Both the position numbers and the translations under genes were made by a program. Shown here in pieces: positions 14,275 to 42,964 of a stretch of 64,000 nucleotides of DNA. The notes beneath the pieces were generated by a model, which had not been told where the DNA came from, did no database searches, and worked only from the letters and a program-made list of their open reading frames with translations. The stretch lies in the NCBI RefSeq assembly GCF_003018255.1, contig NZ_CP027440.1. One strand, given 5' to 3'. The stretch is from Escherichia coli (lineage in GTDB: Bacteria; Pseudomonadota; Gammaproteobacteria; Enterobacterales; Enterobacteriaceae). Position 1 is the stretch's first letter. The number at the start of each line of letters is the position of its first letter.

Positions 14275-15906
14275 GTGTTAACGCTGCTTCACCTGCTTTC
14301 TGCCGTCGCCCTGCTGGTCTGGGGGACTCATATTGTTCGAACCGGCGTAATGCGCGTCTTCGGCGCGCGTTTGCGTACTGTCCTTAGCCGGAGCGTCGAA
14401 AAAAAGCCGCTCGCCTTTTGCGCGGGGATAGGCGTTACCGCACTGGTGCAGAGCAGTAATGCCACCACTATGCTGGTGACCTCGTTCGTCGCTCAGGATC
14501 TGGTAGCCCTCGCACCGGCTCTGGTGATTGTGCTGGGTGCAGATGTCGGGACGGCGCTAATGGCGCGTATTCTCACCTTCGACTTATCCTGGCTGTCACC
14601 ATTACTTATTTTTATCGGCGTGATTTTTTTCCTCGGACGCAAACAGTCACGCGCCGGGCAACTGGGCCGCGTCGGTATTGGTCTTGGGTTGATTTTGCTG
14701 GCGCTGGAGTTGATTGTGCAGGCCGTAACGCCGATCACCCAGGCAAACGGCGTTCAGGTGATCTTTGCCTCGCTGACCGGCGATATTCTGCTGGATGCGC
14801 TGATTGGTGCGATGTTCGCCATTATCAGCTACTCCAGCCTTGCCGCGGTACTGCTGACCGCGACTCTGACCGCCGCAGGCATTATCTCTTTCCCAGTGGC
14901 GCTTTGTCTGGTGATTGGTGCAAACCTCGGTTCCGGCCTGCTGGCGATGCTCAACAACAGTGCCGCCAATGCCGCAGCCCGCCGTGTCGCGCTGGGTAGC
15001 CTGCTGTTTAAGCTGGTGGGTAGCCTGATTATCCTGCCGTTTGTTCATTTGCTGGCAGAGACAATGGGGAAGTTGCCATTGCCAAAAGCGGAATTGGTGA
15101 TCTATTTCCACGTCTTCTACAACCTTGTACGCTGCCTGGTCATGCTGCCATTTGTTGACCCGATGGCACGGTTTTGCAAAACGATTATTCGCGATGAACC
15201 GGAACTGGATACCCAGCTACGGCCTAAACATCTGGATGTCAGCGCGCTGGATACGCCCACGCTTGCTCTGGCGAACGCTGCCCGCGAAACCCTGCGCATT
15301 GGCGACGCCATGGAACAGATGATGGAAGGGTTGAATAAAGTGATGCACGGCGAGCCACGGCAGGAGAAAGAGCTGCGTAAGCTGGCTGATGACATCAACG
15401 TTCTCTATACCGCCATTAAGCTGTATCTGGCGCGGATGCCAAAAGAGGAACTGGCAGAAGAAGAGTCGCGCCGCTGGGCGGAGATCATCGAAATGTCGCT
15501 CAACCTTGAACAGGCCTCCGATATCGTCGAGCGCATGGGGAGTGAAATTGCCGATAAATCGCTGGCAGCACGGCGGGCATTTTCGCTTGATGGCTTGAAG
15601 GAACTGGATGCGCTCTATGAGCAATTGCTCAGTAATTTAAAACTGGCAATGTCGGTTTTCTTCTCTGGCGATGTTACCAGCGCCCGTCGTTTGCGCCGCA
15701 GCAAGCATCGCTTTCGCATTCTTAATCGCCGTTATTCCCATGCTCACGTCGATCGCCTGCATCAGCAAAACGTGCAGAGTATTGAAACCAGTTCGCTACA
15801 TTTAGGCTTACTGGGAGATATGCAGCGTCTGAACTCGCTGTTTTGTTCGGTGGCTTACAGTGTGCTGGAACAGCCGGATGAAGACGAAGGACGGGACGAG
15901 TATTAA
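14275..15906 (+). CDS. yjbB: Na+/Pi-cotransporter family inner membrane protein YjbB
   Basis: 543-aa ORF with GTG start preceded by AAGGAG; N-terminal polytopic membrane domain and C-terminal PhoU-like region. Confidence 0.9.
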   Translation: MLTLLHLLSAVALLVWGTHIVRTGVMRVFGARLRTVLSRSVEKKPLAFCAGIGVTALVQSSNATTMLVTSFVAQDLVALAPALVIVLGADVGTALMARILTFDLSWLSPLLIFIGVIFFLGRKQSRAGQLGRVGIGLGLILLALELIVQAVTPITQANGVQVIFASLTGDILLDALIGAMFAIISYSSLAAVLLTATLTAAGIISFPVALCLVIGANLGSGLLAMLNNSAANAAARRVALGSLLFKLVGSLIILPFVHLLAETMGKLPLPKAELVIYFHVFYNLVRCLVMLPFVDPMARFCKTIIRDEPELDTQLRPKHLDVSALDTPTLALANAARETLRIGDAMEQMMEGLNKVMHGEPRQEKELRKLADDINVLYTAIKLYLARMPKEELAEEESRRWAEIIEMSLNLEQASDIVERMGSEIADKSLAARRAFSLDGLKELDALYEQLLSNLKLAMSVFFSGDVTSARRLRRSKHRFRILNRRYSHAHVDRLHQQNVQSIETSSLHLGLLGDMQRLNSLFCSVAYSVLEQPDEDEGRDEY

Positions 15907-15921
15907 TACCGTGACCCTGAA

Positions 15922-15988
15922 GGCCTGATAAGACGTGTAAAGCGTCGCATCAGGCACTATGTACAAGATGCCGGATCATGCATCCGGC
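15922..15988. repeat. REP-like palindromes between yjbB and pepE
   Basis: ggcctgataagacg...cgtcgcatcaggc and gccggatcatgcatccggc. Confidence 0.75.
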
Positions 15989-15995
15989 AATTCAC

Positions 15996-16685
15996 TTAAA
16001 AACGGTGACCCGCTTCCAGCGGAACCGCTTCTTCACCAGCCTTAAACACATAAGTGGTGTTCGGGCCACCCAGCGTTGCGTGACCTTTATTCACTGTGAT
16101 CCAGTTACCTTCCGGTAGACCAATAATTGTGAGTTCTGGCGCGACGACCAGCAGTTCGCGAATACGCTGTTCACGGGTTTCACCTTTATGGCCTTCCGGC
16201 AGCGCGTTGGTGAAGTGCGGGTTGATTTGCAACGGGAACAGATTCAGCGCATCGAAACCTTGTGGATCGACAATCGGCATATCGTTGGTGGTACGAATGG
16301 TTGGGCAAGCAAGGTTAGCGCCTGCGCTCCAGCCAATATACAGCGCGCCACGTTTCACCACGTCAGTAATGGGTGCCAGCAGCCCGCGCTCGCGGCACTG
16401 TTTCAGCAACTGGAAAGTATTCCCGCCGCCGACAATCACGATCTCAGCATTTTCAATCGCGGCAACGGGATCGACAACGCTATGAATACCGGTGACAGAA
16501 ACACCCAGCGGAGCGAGAACCGCAGCCGTTTTCGCTGTGTAATCATCCCAGGTCTGCGTTACGCCAGCGAAAGGGATAAACACCGCTGAGCGGCGACCCT
16601 GCAACTGTTCAGCAATTAGCGGCAGTGCATGTTCCAGCCAGGCTTTACCCGGCAGCGTCGAGTTACTCAATAAAAGCAGTTCCAT
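15996..16685 (-). CDS. pepE: Dipeptidase E (alpha-aspartyl dipeptidase)
   Basis: 229-aa ORF starting [28 protein letters not shown], recognised as PepE. Confidence 0.95.
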
Positions 16686-16808
16686 TACTTCTCCGGTTAG
16701 TAAGAAATCACGGAAGGCATGCTACCACTGCGAATTTAACCACTTACTGACATGGCTCACGATGTCACGTATTGCACAGGCGCTGAGACTGATGACAAAC
16801 ACAGCATT

Positions 16809-16906
16809 GCCTGATGCGCTACGCTTACCTGGCCTACCAGATAACTGCAATATATTGAATTTTCGAGATTATGTAGGCCGAATAAGGCTTCATTCCGCAT
16901 CCGGCA
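16809..16906. repeat. REP pair in the pepE-sorE spacer
   Basis: gcctgatgcgctacgcttacctggcctac and gtaggccgaataaggcttcattccgcatccggca. Confidence 0.8.
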
Positions 16907-16935
16907 TAAACAATGTGTACTTTGCCACCAATTTG

Positions 16936-16963
16936 AGCGCCCCTTAAGGCGCTGATATTTTTT
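16936..16963 (+). terminator. Terminator-like hairpin with T tract, no obvious plus-strand gene upstream
   Basis: agcgcc-ccttaa-ggcgct followed by gatatttttta; orientation is for plus-strand transcription. Confidence 0.4.
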
Positions 16964-17065
16964 ATCCTTCTCATGCAAATTGTGCTGCTTCAGCAATCAG
17001 CCGCACATCCGGTCGCGAAGTTGCCGCGGCGACCAGCCAGCGACATGCAGAGTTAAGTAGCGCGA

Positions 17066-18295
17066 TTAATCATGGGAAATTGCCTCTGCATGAGTGAGCA
17101 GATATTGCTCCGCCTCACCGGACCAGATCCCCTGATGACGCGCCAGAATTGCCGCCAGTGCTTGATCCTGAATCTGCGTGAGTGACATAAGCGGCAGGTA
17201 TTTCCCGGTATACACCAGCTTTTTGCCGCCGCCGACGGCAGGCAATTCAAGCGTGGTTTCGCCCGCGGCATTCAGCCCAAGAATATGTGTTACCACTTTT
17301 GCGGCCTGCACTTTTTTCTCTTCGATCAGTTTGACCGCCGCGCGCATGTCGTCGGTATTGCCGCCTGACGTGCCCACGTAGTGGGTAAATGCATAATGCA
17401 CATCGTAGAAATTAATTGGCGCGCTGAAATGTTTATCCTGCGGTCCGGCGAAGAAATTCAGGCAACCATCTGTCGCCAGCAAGGAAGAGGCGAGAGTCAC
17501 CAGTCCTTCATTAGGCACAAAGACGAAAATATCATCGAAGCCGTGACCGCCACTCAGCGCCATTAACGTATCAAATGCTGCATCAGTGGCATTGAGATAA
17601 TGAATCAGTGTTTGCGATTCTGATGGATAGTGCTTGCGCGCATAACTCAATTTATCGTTGTCGGTATCGGTAATGACGAGCAGCGACGGGTTAACGGGTC
17701 CATGCAGCGCATAATCAATCGCCAACAGTCCCATTGGTCCGGTGCCGCCGAGGATCAGCGTGCGCCCTTGCGGGCGAATCCCCATCGTGTGGTTATAACT
17801 ACCTTCCTGAAGATGATAGTTGGCGTTGAACGCGCCAATCACGCAGGAAAGCGGTTCAACCAGCGAGCCTTCAAAATAGGTTTCGCCGTCGTATGCCAGC
17901 AGGCAATCTTGTTCCATAACCTCATTTGGGATAACCACATGTGTGGCTTCACCGCCCACCCACGGGAAGGAGTAGCCGGGGCAGTCCGGGCGGTCGGGGA
18001 GTTGCAGGTTGGCCTGAATCACATAACGCTGACCCGGCTGGAATTTGTGCTGCCACTTTTTACCCACGGCCAGAATATCGCCGCAAAACTCGTGGCCGAT
18101 GATGATGGGGTTGGTCGCCACATCGTCGGGTACTTTTTTATGGTTTTCACCCAGATTGGCCTCTTTCCAGGAAGAGAGGCACAGGCTGTCGGTGACCACC
18201 GTCGCGAGGATTTCATCCTCCTGCATTTCAGGAAGATCAAAGGTTTCCAGGCGTAAATCACGTTTACCATAAAGACGCAGAGCTGTTGTTTTCAT
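17066..18295 (-). CDS. sorE: L-sorbose-1-phosphate reductase (zinc-dependent alcohol dehydrogenase family)
   Basis: ORF-track 17066..18307; start taken at MKTTALRLYGKRDLRLETFDLPEMQ. Medium-chain dehydrogenase features and last position in a sorCDFBAME-ordered operon. Confidence 0.85.
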   Translation of the reverse strand: MKTTALRLYGKRDLRLETFDLPEMQEDEILATVVTDSLCLSSWKEANLGENHKKVPDDVATNPIIIGHEFCGDILAVGKKWQHKFQPGQRYVIQANLQLPDRPDCPGYSFPWVGGEATHVVIPNEVMEQDCLLAYDGETYFEGSLVEPLSCVIGAFNANYHLQEGSYNHTMGIRPQGRTLILGGTGPMGLLAIDYALHGPVNPSLLVITDTDNDKLSYARKHYPSESQTLIHYLNATDAAFDTLMALSGGHGFDDIFVFVPNEGLVTLASSLLATDGCLNFFAGPQDKHFSAPINFYDVHYAFTHYVGTSGGNTDDMRAAVKLIEEKKVQAAKVVTHILGLNAAGETTLELPAVGGGKKLVYTGKYLPLMSLTQIQDQALAAILARHQGIWSGEAEQYLLTHAEAISHD

Positions 18296-18346
18296 AAACC
18301 ACCTCATGTTGAGCGATGGCCCCGGCAGTCGTGCCGGGGCGAAGAA

Positions 18347-19171
18347 TCAGGACAGGAAGCCCAGCACATTGCCGATAATCCCTAAGCCAAACAGGGCGAA
18401 AATCAGCCATACCGGGTTAATTTTTTTGTTGAGCAGACGAACCATCAGTAGCGTCAGACCGAGCGCCAGCAAACCAGGGCAAAGTTGGTCGAGAATGTTC
18501 TGCACGGTCATGGTGACGGTGGAGCCATCGGCGGCATGCGTTTGTGAAACCACCAACGGTACGTTGATTGACGTCCATTTGGTGACCAGCACGCCCATCA
18601 CAAACAGTCCGAGAATCGACGCGCCTTCGGTGAGTTTTTGCAGCACATTCCCGCCCATATCGCTGACGATATTCACCCCTTTGCGAAAGCCGAGCTGTAG
18701 GCCATACCACTTCATCGCCAGACGCACCGCGTTGAAAATAAAGAAGAACAGCAGGGGGCCGAGAATGTTGCCCGAAAGTGCCAGAGATGCGCCGAGCGCG
18801 GCGGTAATCGGGCGCAGCGTTCCCCAGACCAGTGGATCGCCAACCCCTGCCAACGGTCCCATCAGGCCGACTTTGATGCCGTTAATGGTACCGTCATCAA
18901 TTTCCGCGCCGTTGGCCCGCGCCTCTTCCATGGCGGCAGTGACGCCGATGACCGGGCCACATACGGCTGGCGTGGTATTGAAGAACACCAGGTGTCGCCT
19001 GAGCGCCGCAACCTGATCCTCTTTTAATGGGTAAAGTCGCTTGATGGCGGGGATCATGTCGTAGCAAAAACCCAGCCCATGAATACGTTCAAAGTTAAAG
19101 GACGCCTGTTGCAGGTTGGAGCGCAGAAACATGTTCACCAGATCGCTGCGTGTAATTTTTCTCTGTTCCAT
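18347..19171 (-). CDS. sorM: PTS sorbose-specific EIID component
   Basis: Mannose-family IID membrane protein. Start taken at MEQRKITRSDLV (GGAG 5 nt upstream); the ORF-track start at 19201 would overlap sorA by 20 nt and lacks a Shine-Dalgarno. Confidence 0.8.
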   Translation of the reverse strand: MEQRKITRSDLVNMFLRSNLQQASFNFERIHGLGFCYDMIPAIKRLYPLKEDQVAALRRHLVFFNTTPAVCGPVIGVTAAMEEARANGAEIDDGTINGIKVGLMGPLAGVGDPLVWGTLRPITAALGASLALSGNILGPLLFFFIFNAVRLAMKWYGLQLGFRKGVNIVSDMGGNVLQKLTEGASILGLFVMGVLVTKWTSINVPLVVSQTHAADGSTVTMTVQNILDQLCPGLLALGLTLLMVRLLNKKINPVWLIFALFGLGIIGNVLGFLS

Positions 19172-19181
19172 GATGGCTCCG

Positions 19182-19979
19182 TTAATTGTCAAGTTGGTCA
19201 AGGGCGGTGGAGGCGGTGGCCTGGAGTTGAGGTTCAGCTTTACGCCACTGTGGATTTAGCTGGATGTAGACCAGGGCCATGATCACGCCGACGCCACCGA
19301 ACGCCAGCAGACTGAGATCGAGGTAGCCACCTGCGAGGAAACCGAGGAAAAAGAAAGGCATCAAATATTTCACGCCCATCATGCGAAGCACCATGGCGTA
19401 ACCGACCACCACGATAAAACCGCCAGCAATCTGCAGTCCACGGGTCACAAATTCGGGAATGGCGCTCAGCATATTGCTCACCATATCAGCGCTGACGAAC
19501 AGCGAGACAATCAGTGCCGGAATAGCAACGCGCAGTGCCTGCACGCCAAGCGCGGAGACATGCAGAATATCGAGAGTGCGAAACCGTGCTTCTTCCGCTG
19601 CTTTATCCGCCGCGTGCTGGAACACTACGGTGATGGTACGGGCAAACACCGTCAGCACCTGGCCTGCCGCAGCCACAGGCAACGCGATGGCGATTCCGGT
19701 GGCGATGCTTTGCTGACCAACGATAACCAGAATGGCGGAGATTATGCTGGCGAGTGCAGAATCCGGAGATTGCGCCGCGCCGACGTTCATCCAGCCGAGA
19801 GCTATCAATTCCAGCGTACCACCGAGCATAATTCCGGTTTTTAAATCACCGAGAATTAAACCAATCACCGTACAGGCAATTAACGGACGATGAGTCTGAA
19901 ATTCATCCAGCACGCTGCCCATTCCGGCAATACAGGAAAAAAGAAATATAGCAATGATTTGTAGGGTACTTATTTCCAT
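19182..19979 (-). CDS. sorA: PTS sorbose-specific EIIC component
   Basis: 265-aa polytopic membrane protein of the mannose-family IIC type, between the IIB and IID genes. Confidence 0.88.
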   Translation of the reverse strand: MEISTLQIIAIFLFSCIAGMGSVLDEFQTHRPLIACTVIGLILGDLKTGIMLGGTLELIALGWMNVGAAQSPDSALASIISAILVIVGQQSIATGIAIALPVAAAGQVLTVFARTITVVFQHAADKAAEEARFRTLDILHVSALGVQALRVAIPALIVSLFVSADMVSNMLSAIPEFVTRGLQIAGGFIVVVGYAMVLRMMGVKYLMPFFFLGFLAGGYLDLSLLAFGGVGVIMALVYIQLNPQWRKAEPQLQATASTALDQLDN

Positions 19980-20044
19980 GATTTGTCACCTTTTAAGTGT
20001 CGTCATCCCTGCCTGTTAAAGCATATGTACACAGGCGCTATTAT

Positions 20045-20539
20045 TTAATTTGCGATTAACTGTTCGTTTATTTTGTCGATAATATTGATTGAGGGATCTG
20101 ACGCTACGACGCGTAAATCCAGTATGACGCCAAGATTATTTAACTCATGAAATGCGTTAATATCATCATCATCTAATGAAACCGCTTTGGTTAACTGTTT
20201 TTTACCGGGCCGCCAGGCCATGCCGCCAATATTCAGGGTGTCTATTTTTACCCCCTGGCGAACCATCGCTAAGGCATCCTGTGGGCGAGTGAAAAGATAA
20301 AAAACGGTTTCGTCCTGATATTGCGGGTTGTGATAAACCGCGACGGCTTTTTCAATATTGACCACGTTAACCTTCATTCCCGGTGGCGCAGCCTGACGCA
20401 ATAATGTCCGGCGCACTTCATCGTTATAAACTTCGTCATTGCAGATAATAATGTGCTGGGCATTAGCCACTTTCGACCAGACGGTAGTGACCTGGCCGTG
20501 GATCAGACGGTCATCAATGCGGGCGAGCGTAATGTTCAT
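20045..20539 (-). CDS. sorB: PTS sorbose-specific EIIB component
   Basis: 164-aa ORF with N-terminal RIDDRLIHGQV motif typical of mannose-family IIB domains. Confidence 0.88.
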   Translation of the reverse strand: MNITLARIDDRLIHGQVTTVWSKVANAQHIIICNDEVYNDEVRRTLLRQAAPPGMKVNVVNIEKAVAVYHNPQYQDETVFYLFTRPQDALAMVRQGVKIDTLNIGGMAWRPGKKQLTKAVSLDDDDINAFHELNNLGVILDLRVVASDPSINIIDKINEQLIAN

Positions 20540-20946
20540 CAGAAATCCTCCTCTGCCGTTGCCAGTTGTTTCCAGACAACGCAGGTTTGCTTTGCGATTT
20601 GCGTCAGGTGTTCACACAGTTCATCAACATTCATGCTGTGCTGGTTATCAACCAGTTCGAGCGCCAGCGGCAGAGAAAGGCCGCTGATTACCCGCAGACG
20701 AGGATTGCGCATCGCAAGCATCGCTGCCGCATTCCACGGGCTGCCGCACTGTAAATCCACGGCAATCAGCCACTCATCTTGATTGTGAATGCTTACTAAC
20801 TTTTCCAGCTTTGCTACGATGTCTCCGGCGTTTTCACCGGGCACAAATTCAACGGCTTCAACATTGGCGTTGCCGTAAACCATCTGAACCGATTCCAGCA
20901 TGGCGCAAGCTAATTTGCCGTGGGCACAAAAAATGGCGTTGACCAT
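20539..20946 (-). CDS. sorF: PTS sorbose-specific EIIA component
   Basis: 135-aa ORF of the mannose-family IIA type; AAGGAG upstream; its stop shares 1 nt with the sorB start. Confidence 0.88.
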   Translation of the reverse strand: MVNAIFCAHGKLACAMLESVQMVYGNANVEAVEFVPGENAGDIVAKLEKLVSIHNQDEWLIAVDLQCGSPWNAAAMLAMRNPRLRVISGLSLPLALELVDNQHSMNVDELCEHLTQIAKQTCVVWKQLATAEEDF

Positions 20947-20955
20947 AAAGCCTCC

Positions 20956-21762
20956 TTAGCCGCGCGTTTTGCCGCCCGCAATGTTAGTGGTTACTCCGGT
21001 GATATAGCTGGCGCGTTGAGACAGCAGATAACAAACAAAATCAGCGACTTCTGCTAATCTTCCGGCGCGCCCAATAGGAATGGCGTTTTTGGTATAGCCT
21101 TCACGCAGCTGCTCGACGGTGATATTGCGCGTCCACGCCAGCGCCTCTTCATATTCCGGCGTGCGTAGCCCGGTTTTTTCCAGAATCCCGGGCGCGATAC
21201 CGACCACACGGATGCCGTGTTTACCCAGCTCTTTCGACCAGGAGCGCGTGAAGCTATTGAGCGCGGCTTTGGTAGCGGCGTAACAGCTTTGGCCTTCTGA
21301 GCCTTCCAGTCCACTTTCTGAGGAAACATTCACAATCACGCCATCATGTTGTTTGACCATCTGTCGCGCCACCGCCTGCGACATCAGAAAAACGCCTTTC
21401 TGGTTGATATTGACCATTTTTTCGAATGCAGCTTCGTTGAGTTCATACTGCCCGGCAGGCGCTTTCTCATCGACCAGCAGACGCGGGAAATTGACCCCGG
21501 CGTTATTGACCAGACCGTCGATGCGACCAAAACGCTGGATAATTTCCGCTACCGTATGATTTACCTCTTTGGCGCTGGAAATATCGGTCGGCCAAAACTG
21601 ATAGCCTTTATGACCTTCATATTGTCCATCGCCACCGTGAATATCGACCATCTGTACATTCGCGCCTTGTGCTAATAATTCCTCTACAATCGCCAGACCA
21701 ATACCGCATGCGCCGCCGGTGACGATAATGATTTTATCCTGCAAATTTAACCACGTTTGCAT
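20956..21762 (-). CDS. sorD: Sorbitol(glucitol)-6-phosphate dehydrogenase, SDR family
   Basis: 268-aa short-chain dehydrogenase with N-terminal TGGACGIG cofactor motif and the YAATK catalytic motif. Confidence 0.87.
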   Translation of the reverse strand: MQTWLNLQDKIIIVTGGACGIGLAIVEELLAQGANVQMVDIHGGDGQYEGHKGYQFWPTDISSAKEVNHTVAEIIQRFGRIDGLVNNAGVNFPRLLVDEKAPAGQYELNEAAFEKMVNINQKGVFLMSQAVARQMVKQHDGVIVNVSSESGLEGSEGQSCYAATKAALNSFTRSWSKELGKHGIRVVGIAPGILEKTGLRTPEYEEALAWTRNITVEQLREGYTKNAIPIGRAGRLAEVADFVCYLLSQRASYITGVTTNIAGGKTRG

Positions 21763-21831
21763 AACAGACTCCTGATTTTAGATAATAGGGACCCGCCGTA
21801 ATTTTTATTACGATAAACATCGGGAAGATTT

Positions 21832-22779
21832 TTATTTCAGTAATAGTTCAGCTGTGCTGCTATTCGTTACCAGACAATTAATATATTTTCCACGCAGTGT
21901 ACCAATAATTCCGCTGTATTTTTCTTCACTCATGGCAATGCCAATGGAATACCGCGCCTGCTTTAATTTATTCATTTCGATAGAGAGTGTTTTTTCGCTC
22001 ATATTCGTTTCAACCATTGCGCCGTGAATATCAAAAAAGCGCGAGCAAATATCGCCAGCAACCTGGCGGGCATTCAGGTCGTCACTCTCTTCACCACCAT
22101 AAAACGCATGCCAGTTAGCGCCGTCGCGAATGGCCGGTGAGCCAATTCCCACCAGGGCGACATCCAGATTATCCCAGTAGGCAGAGATGGTTTTAAAGTG
22201 CTGAGACTGCATGATCCCATTACGAATTAATGGGTTATCCAGCAGAGCCGGAAAATCCGCGAGATGCGATTCCCCTTTCAGCTTCGCTGCCGCGCTGTAG
22301 GTTAATGTGTTTACGTGATAGCGGCTTTCGAGTTTACCGGACGGTCCGCCAATAATTGGTACGCAGATTAACTGCCGCGATTGCCCCGCCTGCGGCAAGT
22401 TTTCAACCAGTGCGCTCACCGCGCGACCCCAGGAAAAACCGACAATATCGCCAGGCTCCAGCAAGCGATCCAGCAGTTGCGCGCCGTGTAACCCCATCAT
22501 CGCCAGTTGAGTCTCTTCATCCTCATCATTTCCCGACACCACCACAACGTCTTTCAGGCCAAACTTTTGCTTCAGTTGCTGCTCCAGCCAGAGATTTTCG
22601 TTGTAGTCATAGTTGATGGCGATGGTGACAATTCCCTGATCGCGGCCTCGTTTAAGCAAGCGGCTGATGGTGGTGCGGTAAATACCCAGTTCGCGCGCGA
22701 TTTGCGCCTGCGTCATATCCTGTTCGTAATAGAGTTGGGCAATCTTCACAATCAAACGGATATCGTCACTGTTTTCCAT
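21832..22779 (-). CDS. sorC: Sorbose operon transcriptional regulator (SorC/DeoR family)
   Basis: ORF-track 21832..22863 begins at a TTG; start moved to MENSDDIRLIVKIAQLYYEQDMTQAQIARELGIYRTTISR (315 aa), preceded by AGGAGG. N-terminal helix-turn-helix plus sugar-phosphate binding domain. Confidence 0.85.
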   Translation of the reverse strand: MENSDDIRLIVKIAQLYYEQDMTQAQIARELGIYRTTISRLLKRGRDQGIVTIAINYDYNENLWLEQQLKQKFGLKDVVVVSGNDEDEETQLAMMGLHGAQLLDRLLEPGDIVGFSWGRAVSALVENLPQAGQSRQLICVPIIGGPSGKLESRYHVNTLTYSAAAKLKGESHLADFPALLDNPLIRNGIMQSQHFKTISAYWDNLDVALVGIGSPAIRDGANWHAFYGGEESDDLNARQVAGDICSRFFDIHGAMVETNMSEKTLSIEMNKLKQARYSIGIAMSEEKYSGIIGTLRGKYINCLVTNSSTAELLLK

Positions 22780-23126
22780 TGCCGCCTCCTGGTTCTGCAC
22801 ATTTGTGCAAATACGCTTTCTCACCGCTTGATCTGATATAACCCCATCATGAGGGCCTTTCAAAGCGATTTTTCACTCTTTGCATGGGGAGAAATAGCGC
22901 TTTCTCTTGCACATTTGTTTCTCTGCGTAGTAGTCATCAGCACAGGTGTGCAGCGATTCGTAATATGTTGATTATCCTTATTTTGCCAGGCAAATTTGCA
23001 TCGTACTTCCGGAGACACTTTTGTGATAAAAGGCGTGGCAGATCACATTTAATTTCGACGTTGCCGCATAACCCTGTTTTTCCCCGCTAAGAGGTACGGT
23101 ATATTCCGCGTTTTACAGGAGAATTT

Positions 23127-23999
23127 ATGCTGCCCGACTCATCAGTCCGTTTAAATAAATACATCAGCGAAAGCGGAATTTGCTCACGCCGCGAAGCGGA
23201 TCGCTATATCGAGCAAGGCAATGTGTTCCTTAATGGCAAGCGAGCCACCATTGGCGATCAGGTGAAACCCGGCGACGTTGTGAAAGTAAATGGTCAGTTG
23301 ATTGAACCTCGGGAAGCCGAAGATTTGGTACTTATCGCCCTGAACAAGCCCGTCGGTATTGTCAGCACCACCGAAGATGGCGAGCGCGATAACATTGTCG
23401 ATTTCGTTAACCACAGCAAACGCGTATTCCCGATTGGCCGCCTGGATAAAGACTCCCAGGGGCTGATTTTCCTCACCAATCACGGCGATCTGGTGAATAA
23501 GATCCTCCGTGCGGGTAACGATCATGAGAAAGAGTATCTGGTGACGGTCGATAAACCGATTACCGATGAATTTATTCGTGGTATGGGGGCGGGGGTGCCA
23601 ATCCTCGGGACAGTGACTAAAAAGTGCAAAGTCAAAAAAGAAGCGCCATTTGTCTTCCGCATTACCCTGGTGCAGGGGCTGAACCGTCAGATCCGTCGCA
23701 TGTGCGAGCACTTTGGTTACGAAGTGAAAAAGCTGGAACGTACGCGCATTATGAACGTCAGTTTAAGCGGCATTCCGCTGGGGGAGTGGCGCGATTTAAC
23801 CGACGATGAGTTAATCGACCTCTTTAAGCTCATCGAAAATTCCTCTTCCGAGGCAAAACCTAAAGCGAAGGCCAAACCGAAAACGGTAGGCATCAAACGT
23901 CCAGTCGTTAAGATGGAAAAAACGGCGGAAAAAGGCGGTCGCCCGGCGTCCAACGGTAAGCGTTTTACCTCGCCGGGGCGCAAAAAGAAGGGGCGTTAA
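23127..23999 (+). CDS. rluF: 23S rRNA pseudouridine synthase F
   Basis: 290-aa ORF with N-terminal S4 domain, RluA/RsuA-type catalytic region and Lys-rich tail; recognised as RluF. Confidence 0.93.
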
Positions 24000-42851: not shown

Positions 42852-42863
42852 TCCTTCTGGGTT

Positions 42864-42964
42864 GCCTGATGCGCTGCGCTTCTCAGGCCTACACAACATA
42901 TCGCAATTTATTGAATTTGCAGATCATGGTAGGCCGAATAAGGCGTTTGCGCCGCATCCGGCAA
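42864..42964. repeat. REP elements downstream of plsB
   Basis: gcctgatgcgctgcgcttctcaggcctac and gtaggccgaataaggcgtttgcgccgcatccggcaa. Confidence 0.85.

Follow-up and report, generated by a model that had tools for sequence, protein, structure and literature searches.

What fills the 380-bp gap between pepE and sorE in Escherichia coli strains that carry the sor genes, and does it mark the place where those genes were acquired? The stretch of DNA analysed here (the window, 64,000 nucleotides) shows the gene order metH, yjbB (14275-15906, plus strand), pepE (15996-16685, minus strand), spacer and sorE, with sorM, sorA, sorB, sorF, sorD and sorC lying upstream of sorE on the minus strand as far as 22863, followed by rluF on the plus strand (23127-23999). 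An initial annotation, made from the letters of the sequence, described the gap as a pair of REP palindromes and an orphan terminator for plus-strand transcription, possibly the scar of an acquired sor island. It placed pepE on the minus strand, as we do, and overlooked what the identical orientation of sorE means for the spacer. As both genes are read from that strand, the spacer comprises the 3' end of the sor operon and the promoter and upstream region of pepE. We consider it quite likely that the spacer represents what is left of the 3' end of the sor operon after decay, adjoining the pepE promoter. The comparisons establish its anatomy, homology, conservation and distribution; activity as a terminator or insulator, binding of IHF and promoter function are inferred from them. 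The region is an ordinary layered operon tail, composed of a gene stub, an old terminator stem, a BIME-1 and the promoter of the neighbouring gene, and contains no new kind of element (Table 1).

RefSeq annotates no feature in the stub region of the sorE-pepE spacer, and an Rfam search of 15700-17300 (E <= 10) returned nothing in this spacer. A REP-derived match to the Rfam model naRNA4, below the gathering score, sits in the yjbB-pepE gap and is the only such match in 15700-17300. The list of open reading frames confirms that no plus-strand gene lies upstream of the hairpin, as had been noted before. The sole plus-strand open reading frame in that position (16762-16947, 61 aa) runs across both REPs, and only eight codons of it are left in K-12; it was rejected as a small gene and is taken to be translated REP sequence.

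Table 1 Features of the sorE-pepE spacer and its surroundings, in window coordinates
Feature	Position	Strand	Details
pepE 5' region and promoter block, common to sor-less strains (K-12)	16686..16775	-	90 bp align to K-12
sor segment, 6316 bp, replaced by 86 unrelated bp in K-12	16776..23091	-	BIME, hairpin, sdhL stub, sorE through sorC, sorC upstream region
pepE-side arm of 21-nt imperfect inverted repeat, GGCGCTGAGACTGATGACAAA	16779..16799	.	76% complementary to 16921-16941
Y-type REP (short) of BIME-1, GCCTGATGCGCTACGCTTACCTGGCCTAC	16808..16837	+	tail motif CTTATCMGGCCTAC with 2 mismatches; aligns to the Y REP of the second BIME-1 and to the undecayed E. whittamii copy
L linker of BIME-1, 35 nt	16838..16872	.	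conserved core TGCAATATATTGAATTT at 16846-16862
Z1-type REP of BIME-1, GTAGGCCGAATAAGGCTTCATTCCGCATCCGGCA	16873..16906	-	inverted relative to the Y REP; 1 mismatch in tail motif
sorE-side arm of 21-nt inverted repeat, TTTGCCACCAATTTGAGCGCC	16921..16941	.	overlaps one hairpin arm
Conserved 3' stem-loop of the sor operon	16936..16953	-	minus: AGCGCCU-UAAG-GGGCGCU (7 bp); plus: AGCGCC-CCUUAA-GGCGCU (6 bp)
A-rich spacer from sdhL stop to hairpin (minus strand AAAAAATATC), equal to the plus-strand T tract GATATTTTTT	16954..16963	.	
sdhL remnant, unannotated, shikimate-5-dehydrogenase-like	16962..17073	-	identified by alignment with intact sdhL of E. whittamii and of one E. coli
sorE (L-sorbose-1-phosphate reductase)	17066..18307	-	last intact gene of sorCDFBAME

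An eighth sor gene and its remnant

The part of the spacer next to sorE is the remnant of a gene, sdhL. A single clean internal deletion of 701 bp (junction 17016/17017) has left the start region, which contains two ATG codons, one at 17073-17071 that overlaps the sorE stop and a second, inner one at 17046-17044, together with the last ~55 nt of the gene and its stop codon at 16964-16962. What can still be read from this stub is an 18-codon frameshifted frame, MSLAGRRGNFATGCAADC, closed by a stop codon. The proposed history of the region begins with an sdhL gene whose start overlapped the sorE stop and which was reduced to a stub by this deletion.

SorE relatives were scanned with one genome per species, which returned 80 loci. 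In 26 of the 32 enterobacterial loci that were examined, sorE is followed by a same-strand gene of 261-271 aa, whose annotated start overlaps the sorE stop. Intact sdhL lies directly after sorE in E. whittamii, and also in sister species and five other genera; the E. whittamii orthologue is a full-length match to NCBIfam NF009202 (444.5 bits, cut-off 306). Within E. coli, 177 genomes have kept the intact gene. From comparative sequence evidence, this distribution indicates that in Enterobacteriaceae sdhL originally belonged to the sor operon as its eighth gene.

A previous study found sdhL next to sor only in ST648 among the sequence types examined, and treated it as an ST-specific insertion (PMC12817954). 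The gene named there (HI_0607-like, NF009202) is the same as that of the stub, and 176 genomes with an intact copy share a junction identical to that of strain EC488. Our reading differs in that sdhL would be ancestral in Enterobacteriaceae and lost from most E. coli via the one 701-bp deletion. In an ST648 strain sdhL was co-induced with the sor genes by sorbose, and just as strongly (L2FC 6.01 for RNA and 6.77 for protein; supplement of PMC12817954); the same supplement contains no expression values for pepE. The new points are minor ones, namely an ancestral eighth gene, its unannotated stub in most sor-positive E. coli, and the identification of the supposed orphan terminator as the operon's own stem. 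They correct both the annotation and the evolutionary reading of a locus that now serves to mark high-risk lineages of E. coli: the sor operon of Enterobacteriaceae would ancestrally have had eight genes rather than the seven that remain intact in the window.

The hairpin and its strand

The hairpin and T tract reported in the initial annotation are present where it put them, as AGCGCC/CCTTAA/GGCGCT followed by GATATTTTTT, and they form the best-ranked terminator-like site in a scan of 15800-17400 (five sites, compared with 1.9 +/- 1.2 in shuffled sequence). In the sor direction the same bases read TAA-AAAATATC-AGCGCCT-TAAG-GGGCGCT-CAAATTGG, so that the hairpin begins 8 nt past the ancestral sdhL stop codon, and two T's of the plus-strand T tract are the AA of that TAA codon. 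The terminator-like look of the plus strand thus arises from a palindromic stem combined with an A-rich stretch that follows a minus-strand stop codon.

On shape, each strand has part of what is expected of an intrinsic terminator. The plus strand offers a 6-bp stem with five GC pairs and a U run that starts 4 nt after the stem, but neither a gene nor a promoter upstream on the same strand; the scan of 15800-17400 found no sigma-70-like promoter on either strand. The sor strand offers a stem-loop just 3' of the operon's last gene, but in E. coli no U tract after the stem: its tail there, CAAAUUGGUGG, has a score of 1.71 and is part of the BIME cassette's inverted-repeat arm. The opposite strand of E. 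coli carries a run of T6-T7 with a tail score of about 2.5, or by hand estimate ~4.5 if the stem is extended to 16930-16959. Neither strand of the E. coli hairpin is a textbook terminator, and on shape alone the plus strand looks better.

Comparison across genera points to the other strand. A stem of the form (A)GAGCGCC-loop-GGCGCTC(T) is found 4-13 nt past the sdhL stop in at least 20 taxa of Escherichia, Pseudocitrobacter, Citrobacter, Klebsiella, Raoultella and Enterobacter, and this hairpin (GAGCGCC/GGCGCTC) is also present in genera that have no BIME at the locus. In a 23-taxon alignment 90.8% of the cells of the stem are paired, compared with 22-56% when the partner is slid, and three stem pairs have changed on both sides, including one full compensatory exchange to GAGCACC/GGTGCTC in UBA3516. 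Wobble pairs (G.U) speak for the sor strand in three lineages, but in E. albertii the stem forms on the opposite strand only; covariation does not assign the stem to a strand. U tails with scores of 3.1-3.8 follow the stem on the sor strand in Citrobacter MGH106 and wls619, in R. ornithinolytica and in Raoultella BIGb0138 (opposite strand 1.7-2.3), and a U-rich tail on the sor strand is seen where nothing has been inserted beside the stem. The presence of such tails in relatives without later insertions suggests that the ancestral role of the hairpin was that of an intrinsic terminator of the sor operon.

The E. coli copy can thus be compared with the predicted rho-independent terminators 3' of sdhL in the Citrobacter and Raoultella sor operons, whose GC-rich stem (GAGCGCC/GGCGCTC) is homologous to its own and stands equally far from the stop codon that closes the last gene. 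Unlike them, it has no U tail on the operon strand and carries its T run on the other strand. Position and conservation together make the hairpin appear to be the sor operon's own terminator stem seen from the wrong strand, and the idea of an orphan plus-strand terminator was not borne out: the structure is a conserved stem-loop after the last gene of a minus-strand operon. Under the proposed explanation, this terminal stem-loop, 8 nt past the old sdhL stop, would act as an intrinsic terminator in relatives without later insertions, and in Escherichia its U tail would have been replaced by the flank of the repeat cassette. With the U tail replaced, the Escherichia hairpin is probably only a weak terminator or a structure that protects the 3' end.

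A rival explanation takes the hairpin to be a real plus-strand or bidirectional intrinsic terminator in E. coli, which blocks antisense transcription from the pepE upstream or BIME region into sorE and whose T run was sharpened to T7 after the loss of sdhL. The canonical shape on the plus strand agrees with this, as does the folding, which departs further from expectation on the plus strand (-12 kcal/mol, z = -4.07) than on the minus strand (-12.2 kcal/mol, z = -2.28). The hairpin is invariant in eight aligned sor-positive sequences (the window and seven other E. coli genomes); the hairpin region is single copy in 2658 genomes, in which hairpin and T run are invariant or nearly so, 1813 of them matching at >=99% identity over the aligned stretch. 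In Klebsiella, several Citrobacter and P. vendiensis, moreover, a convergent ccdAB-like gene pair ends inside the stem, the stop codon of the ccdB-like gene abutting the hairpin, which suggests that the stem can serve the opposite strand too. An uninterrupted T run is confined to the sdhL-deleted E. coli lineage: most E. coli, with sdhL deleted, have GATGTTTTTTT (T7), the window has GATATTTTTT, and E. coli with intact sdhL have GATGTTTCTTA, as do other Escherichia. However, the run is not conserved in other Escherichia, and drift would also lead to the gain of a homopolymer beside a dead gene. The T run does not start until four non-T bases after the stem, the plus strand has neither gene nor promoter to be terminated, and a search of the literature for transcripts or sRNAs in the sorE-pepE gap found nothing usable and hence no RNA support. 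We regard a plus-strand or bidirectional terminator in E. coli as unlikely, and prefer the reading of the hairpin as the inherited stem of the sor operon.

The BIME-1 and its rearrangements

Between the hairpin and the pepE promoter block lie the two REP palindromes, both of which are present as previously reported, the first with a left end at 16808. With no more than two mismatches allowed, the window contains 17 matches to the REP tail motif CTTATCMGGCCTAC, compared with 0.45 expected by chance. Both spacer REPs are somewhat decayed in E. coli, with two mismatches in the tail motif of one and one in that of the other, and the inner stem of the Z1 REP is eroded; the REP-derived Rfam model naRNA4 matches neither of them. 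The core of the linker between them, TGCAATATATTGAATTT, matches the IHF consensus WATCAANNNNTTR on the minus strand with one mismatch, as read from the sequence. The same core occurs again at 42902-42918 (0.12 matches expected by chance), within a second Y-L-Z1 element at 42863-42950 that has the same Y and Z1 partners at the same spacing.

BIME-1 elements have been defined as a z1 and a y REP in single copy with a long conserved L linker, frequently with an IHF site (PMC3333891). The spacer element has y and z1 REPs in inverted orientation, a long linker with an IHF-type site, and just one unit at the locus, both in the window and in seven other aligned sor-positive E. coli. By these features the REP pair is one BIME-1, made up of Y REP, L linker and Z1 REP. 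It shares with the class, known also as RIP/RIB or REP-IHF-REP, the inverted Y and Z1 REPs, a linker of ~35 nt with an IHF-type core, the single copy and the position at the 3' end of a transcription unit, and it differs in that its REPs are slightly decayed, its IHF site is putative and an additional 21-nt imperfect inverted repeat brackets it (16779-16799 and 16921-16941). Elements of the BIME-1 class sit at the 3' ends of transcription units. The single BIME-1 with its bracketing repeat would, in the proposed explanation, probably help in stabilising or terminating the sor transcript and in keeping sor and pepE apart.

The cassette has a varied history in related genomes. E. whittamii carries the same BIME-1 at this position, as do two further Escherichia lineages outside E. 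coli. In E. albertii a 147-bp unit consisting of half of the hairpin and the BIME has been amplified about fourfold (3.9 tandem units), and in Pseudocitrobacter the 21-nt arm that lies on the pepE side in the window directly follows the hairpin and the cassette stands in the opposite orientation relative to the flanking genes. Three alleles with sor are found within E. coli. Stub, hairpin and BIME occur together in 2681 genomes. A second group of 176 genomes has an intact sdhL and a spacer of 122 bp; between two TCAGCGCCT direct repeats, this spacer lacks the entire BIME along with the pepE-side arm of the hairpin, which on the sor strand is the 3' arm. One genome, JNEC-KY178, combines intact sdhL with hairpin and BIME, as in E. 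whittamii; this arrangement looks ancestral, and the other two alleles look like independent deletions. The 176 genomes that have neither the hairpin arm nor the BIME suggest that the structure is dispensable. The contrast between 2681 genomes with hairpin and BIME and 176 with neither offers a natural experiment on whether structures of this kind at a 3' end shield the next gene, pepE, from a strongly induced operon.

These rearrangements also bear on the possibility that the cassette is a present or past mobile or invertible unit of a REP-associated transposase. Such a unit would have inserted at the terminator and would now form one of the two hairpin arms, so that the hairpin in Escherichia would be partly repeat-derived. 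The 21-nt inverted repeats end in GGCGCT/AGCGCC on both sides, and inversion in Pseudocitrobacter, amplification in E. albertii and precise absence between the direct repeats in the 176 E. coli genomes would all be in keeping with such a unit. Against it, the cassette is present in a single copy per genome, for which reason a MITE reading was rejected, and the occurrence of the hairpin in genera without the BIME shows the stem to be native. Ordinary recombination between short repeats can, moreover, invert, delete and amplify. A mobile or invertible cassette is thus improbable in our estimation. We give similarly little credence to a more far-reaching scenario, in which E. coli, after the loss of sdhL, turned the old sor stem into a plus-strand terminator by means of T7, shielding sor from antisense transcription with a start near the BIME or the pepE promoter, next to a BIME cassette that inverts, amplifies and excises; if true, it would be a case of a REP element remodelling an operon's terminator in real time. 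The preferred reading remains that of a native stem next to a single BIME-1.

The edge of the sor segment and the putative pepE promoter block

The remaining question is whether the spacer records the arrival of sor. In K-12, the pepE-rluF spacer measures 211 bp, of which the first 90 bp correspond to window positions 16686-16775 and the last 35 bp to 23092-23126, with 86 private bp between them. This alignment places the left edge of the sor/no-sor polymorphism at 16775/16776, within the spacer, as the initial annotation had supposed. The pepE promoter block thus ends right beside this edge, and the closest REP is 33 bp away. The whole 380-bp spacer is present in 2681 of 5426 complete E. coli genomes, and the rest match only its first 81-90 bp. 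It follows that the REPs and the hairpin travel with sor; they were not seen at pepE in sor-less strains, an arrangement that would have counted against the initial annotation.

This agreement does not extend to the proposed acquisition scar, in which the REP pair would be the recombination scar of an incoming sor island. Apart from the absence of REPs and hairpin from sor-less genomes, this proposal can point to a left boundary only 33 bp from the Y REP and to the standing of REP and BIME elements as known rearrangement targets (PMC3333891). But the boundary is outside the REP, no REP is present at the right junction (23091/23092), and the BIME occupies the same position in sister Escherichia with intact sdhL. 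The order rluF-sor-pepE-yjbB is found across at least six genera, in Escherichia (four non-coli lineages), Pseudocitrobacter, Citrobacter, Klebsiella, Raoultella and Enterobacter, and the GC content inside the sor segment (0.48-0.55) is the same as that of its flanks (0.50-0.56). The published distribution shows sor in more than 86% of genomes in each phylogroup except A (9.56%) and B1 (12.12%) (PMC12817954). The usual marks of an island boundary, namely absence in relatives, deviant composition and flanking repeats or mobility genes, are not found here, with neither a REP nor another repeat at the right junction. We consider the acquisition scar largely refuted and very improbable indeed. Synteny across genera, the distribution over phylogroups and the flat GC content suggest that the lineage of K-12 has lost sor, which is more probable than a recent gain here.

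The 86 bp private to K-12 contain no REP remnant, and their local alignment to the sor-side spacer does not exceed that of shuffled sequences (p = 0.09-0.84), which adds to the case against a scar. Two segments, GATAAAAAATAGTCA and GCTCAAAT, resemble by eye relics of the hairpin or of the sdhL stop; given the same shuffles (p = 0.09-0.84), no homology is claimed for them.

On the other side of the edge, the 90 bp shared with K-12 look like a complete pepE promoter. They contain a CRP/FNR-type palindrome at 16746-16761 (minus strand, CGTGAGCCATGTCAGT) and an extended -10 at 16719-16727 (minus strand, TGGTAGCAT). With this spacing the centre of the palindrome would fall near -41.5, as for a class II activator site. 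For pepE of K-12, an FNR ChIP peak and direct activation by FNR have been reported (PMC3688515). The first 81-90 bp of the spacer are matched in 5424 of 5426 E. coli genomes, and the promoter block is conserved in Salmonella and Kluyvera, with different genes beyond it. In the proposed explanation, this block of ~90 bp with its CRP/FNR-type site and extended -10 would drive pepE, and the sor/no-sor polymorphism begins directly upstream of it. The locus in this respect resembles other variable slots between core genes: between rluF and pepE, Salmonella has a DUF2058 gene and Kluyvera a higBA-like pair, other genera have sor with or without the ccdAB-like pair, and K-12 has no cargo. It differs from such slots in having no integrase, tRNA or att-like repeat, and its border is at the same time the upstream limit of the pepE promoter block.

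Second inactivating change in sdhL and alleles in E. coli

Read from its ATG (17073-17071), which overlaps the sorE stop, the sdhL stub left in the window by the 701-bp deletion meets a TAA at codon 7 (MINRAT*), and this sequence was invariant in all aligned sor+ sequences (8/8, the window and seven other E. coli genomes). The TAA is a second inactivating change in sdhL, the ancestral eighth sor gene, besides the deletion. In an E. coli lineage with intact sdhL (EC488, L090 490-522; 176 genomes in total), sdhL lies only 122 bp from pepE, the BIME is absent and a single hairpin arm is left; sorbose-induced transcription may continue directly into pepE in these strains. The genome closest to the window in the spacer, E. 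coli 2012C-4221, is annotated with frameshifted pseudogenes for both sorE and metH, which may reflect either assembly errors or true decay of the sor pathway.

Inverted and tandem BIME cassettes in related species

In Pseudocitrobacter (L060/L010), the BIME cassette with its flanking arm is collinear with the anti-sor strand of E. coli, and thus the entire cassette is inverted between the genera relative to sdhL and pepE. In Escherichia albertii NBRC 107761, a 147-bp unit composed of the distal half of the hairpin and the entire BIME-1 occurs in 3.9 tandem copies with 93% matches, an unusual arrangement because BIME-1 is normally single-copy. The hairpin of this locus pairs on the anti-sor strand only, and the tblastn match to SorE spans just 251 aa (~60% of the query).

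Cargo genes beside pepE

A convergent pair of ccdB-like (105 aa) and ccdA-like (97 aa) genes lies between sdhL and pepE in Klebsiella grimontii, Pseudocitrobacter vendiensis and several Citrobacter; its NCBIfam matches are weak and fall below the cut-off, and the stop codon of the ccdB-like gene falls within the terminator stem of the sor operon. The same gap in Citrobacter sp. MGH106 holds two further, unrelated minus-strand ORFs of 154 and 289 aa. Since the gap between rluF and pepE carries a DUF2058 gene in Salmonella enterica and a higBA-like pair in Kluyvera, this site represents a variable cargo slot across Enterobacteriaceae.

Other REP elements in the window

As a comparator for the spacer BIME-1 we used a second BIME-1 in the window, which has the same architecture and spacing. 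A further REP pair is located in the convergent yjbB-pepE gap, where naRNA4, a REP-derived Rfam family, matches the minus strand at a sub-threshold 42.1 bits (E = 1e-5; gathering score 59.5).

Coordinates of sdhL, BIME and cargo features in the window and in the comparison loci
Feature	Sequence	Position	Remarks
sdhL stub, start region with TAA	window	17047-17073	
REP pair, naRNA4 match	window	15922-15989	
Second BIME-1	window	42863-42950	Y REP, L linker CGCAATTTATTGAATTT, Z1 REP
BIME cassette and flanking arm	Pseudocitrobacter, L060/L010	7067-7225	compared with window 16776-16945
Tandem BIME units	E. albertii, L040	3602-4177	
ccdB-like/ccdA-like pair	K. grimontii, L021	7064-7674	weak NCBIfam matches, below cut-off
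ccdB-like/ccdA-like pair	P. vendiensis, L011	7074-7681	weak NCBIfam matches, below cut-off
Two ORFs in the sdhL-pepE gap	Citrobacter sp. MGH106, L017	7089-8738	
DUF2058 gene	S. enterica, L092	2240-2779	
Gp49/HTH (higBA-like) pair	Kluyvera, L094	2120-2786	
Closest spacer match	E. coli 2012C-4221, L002
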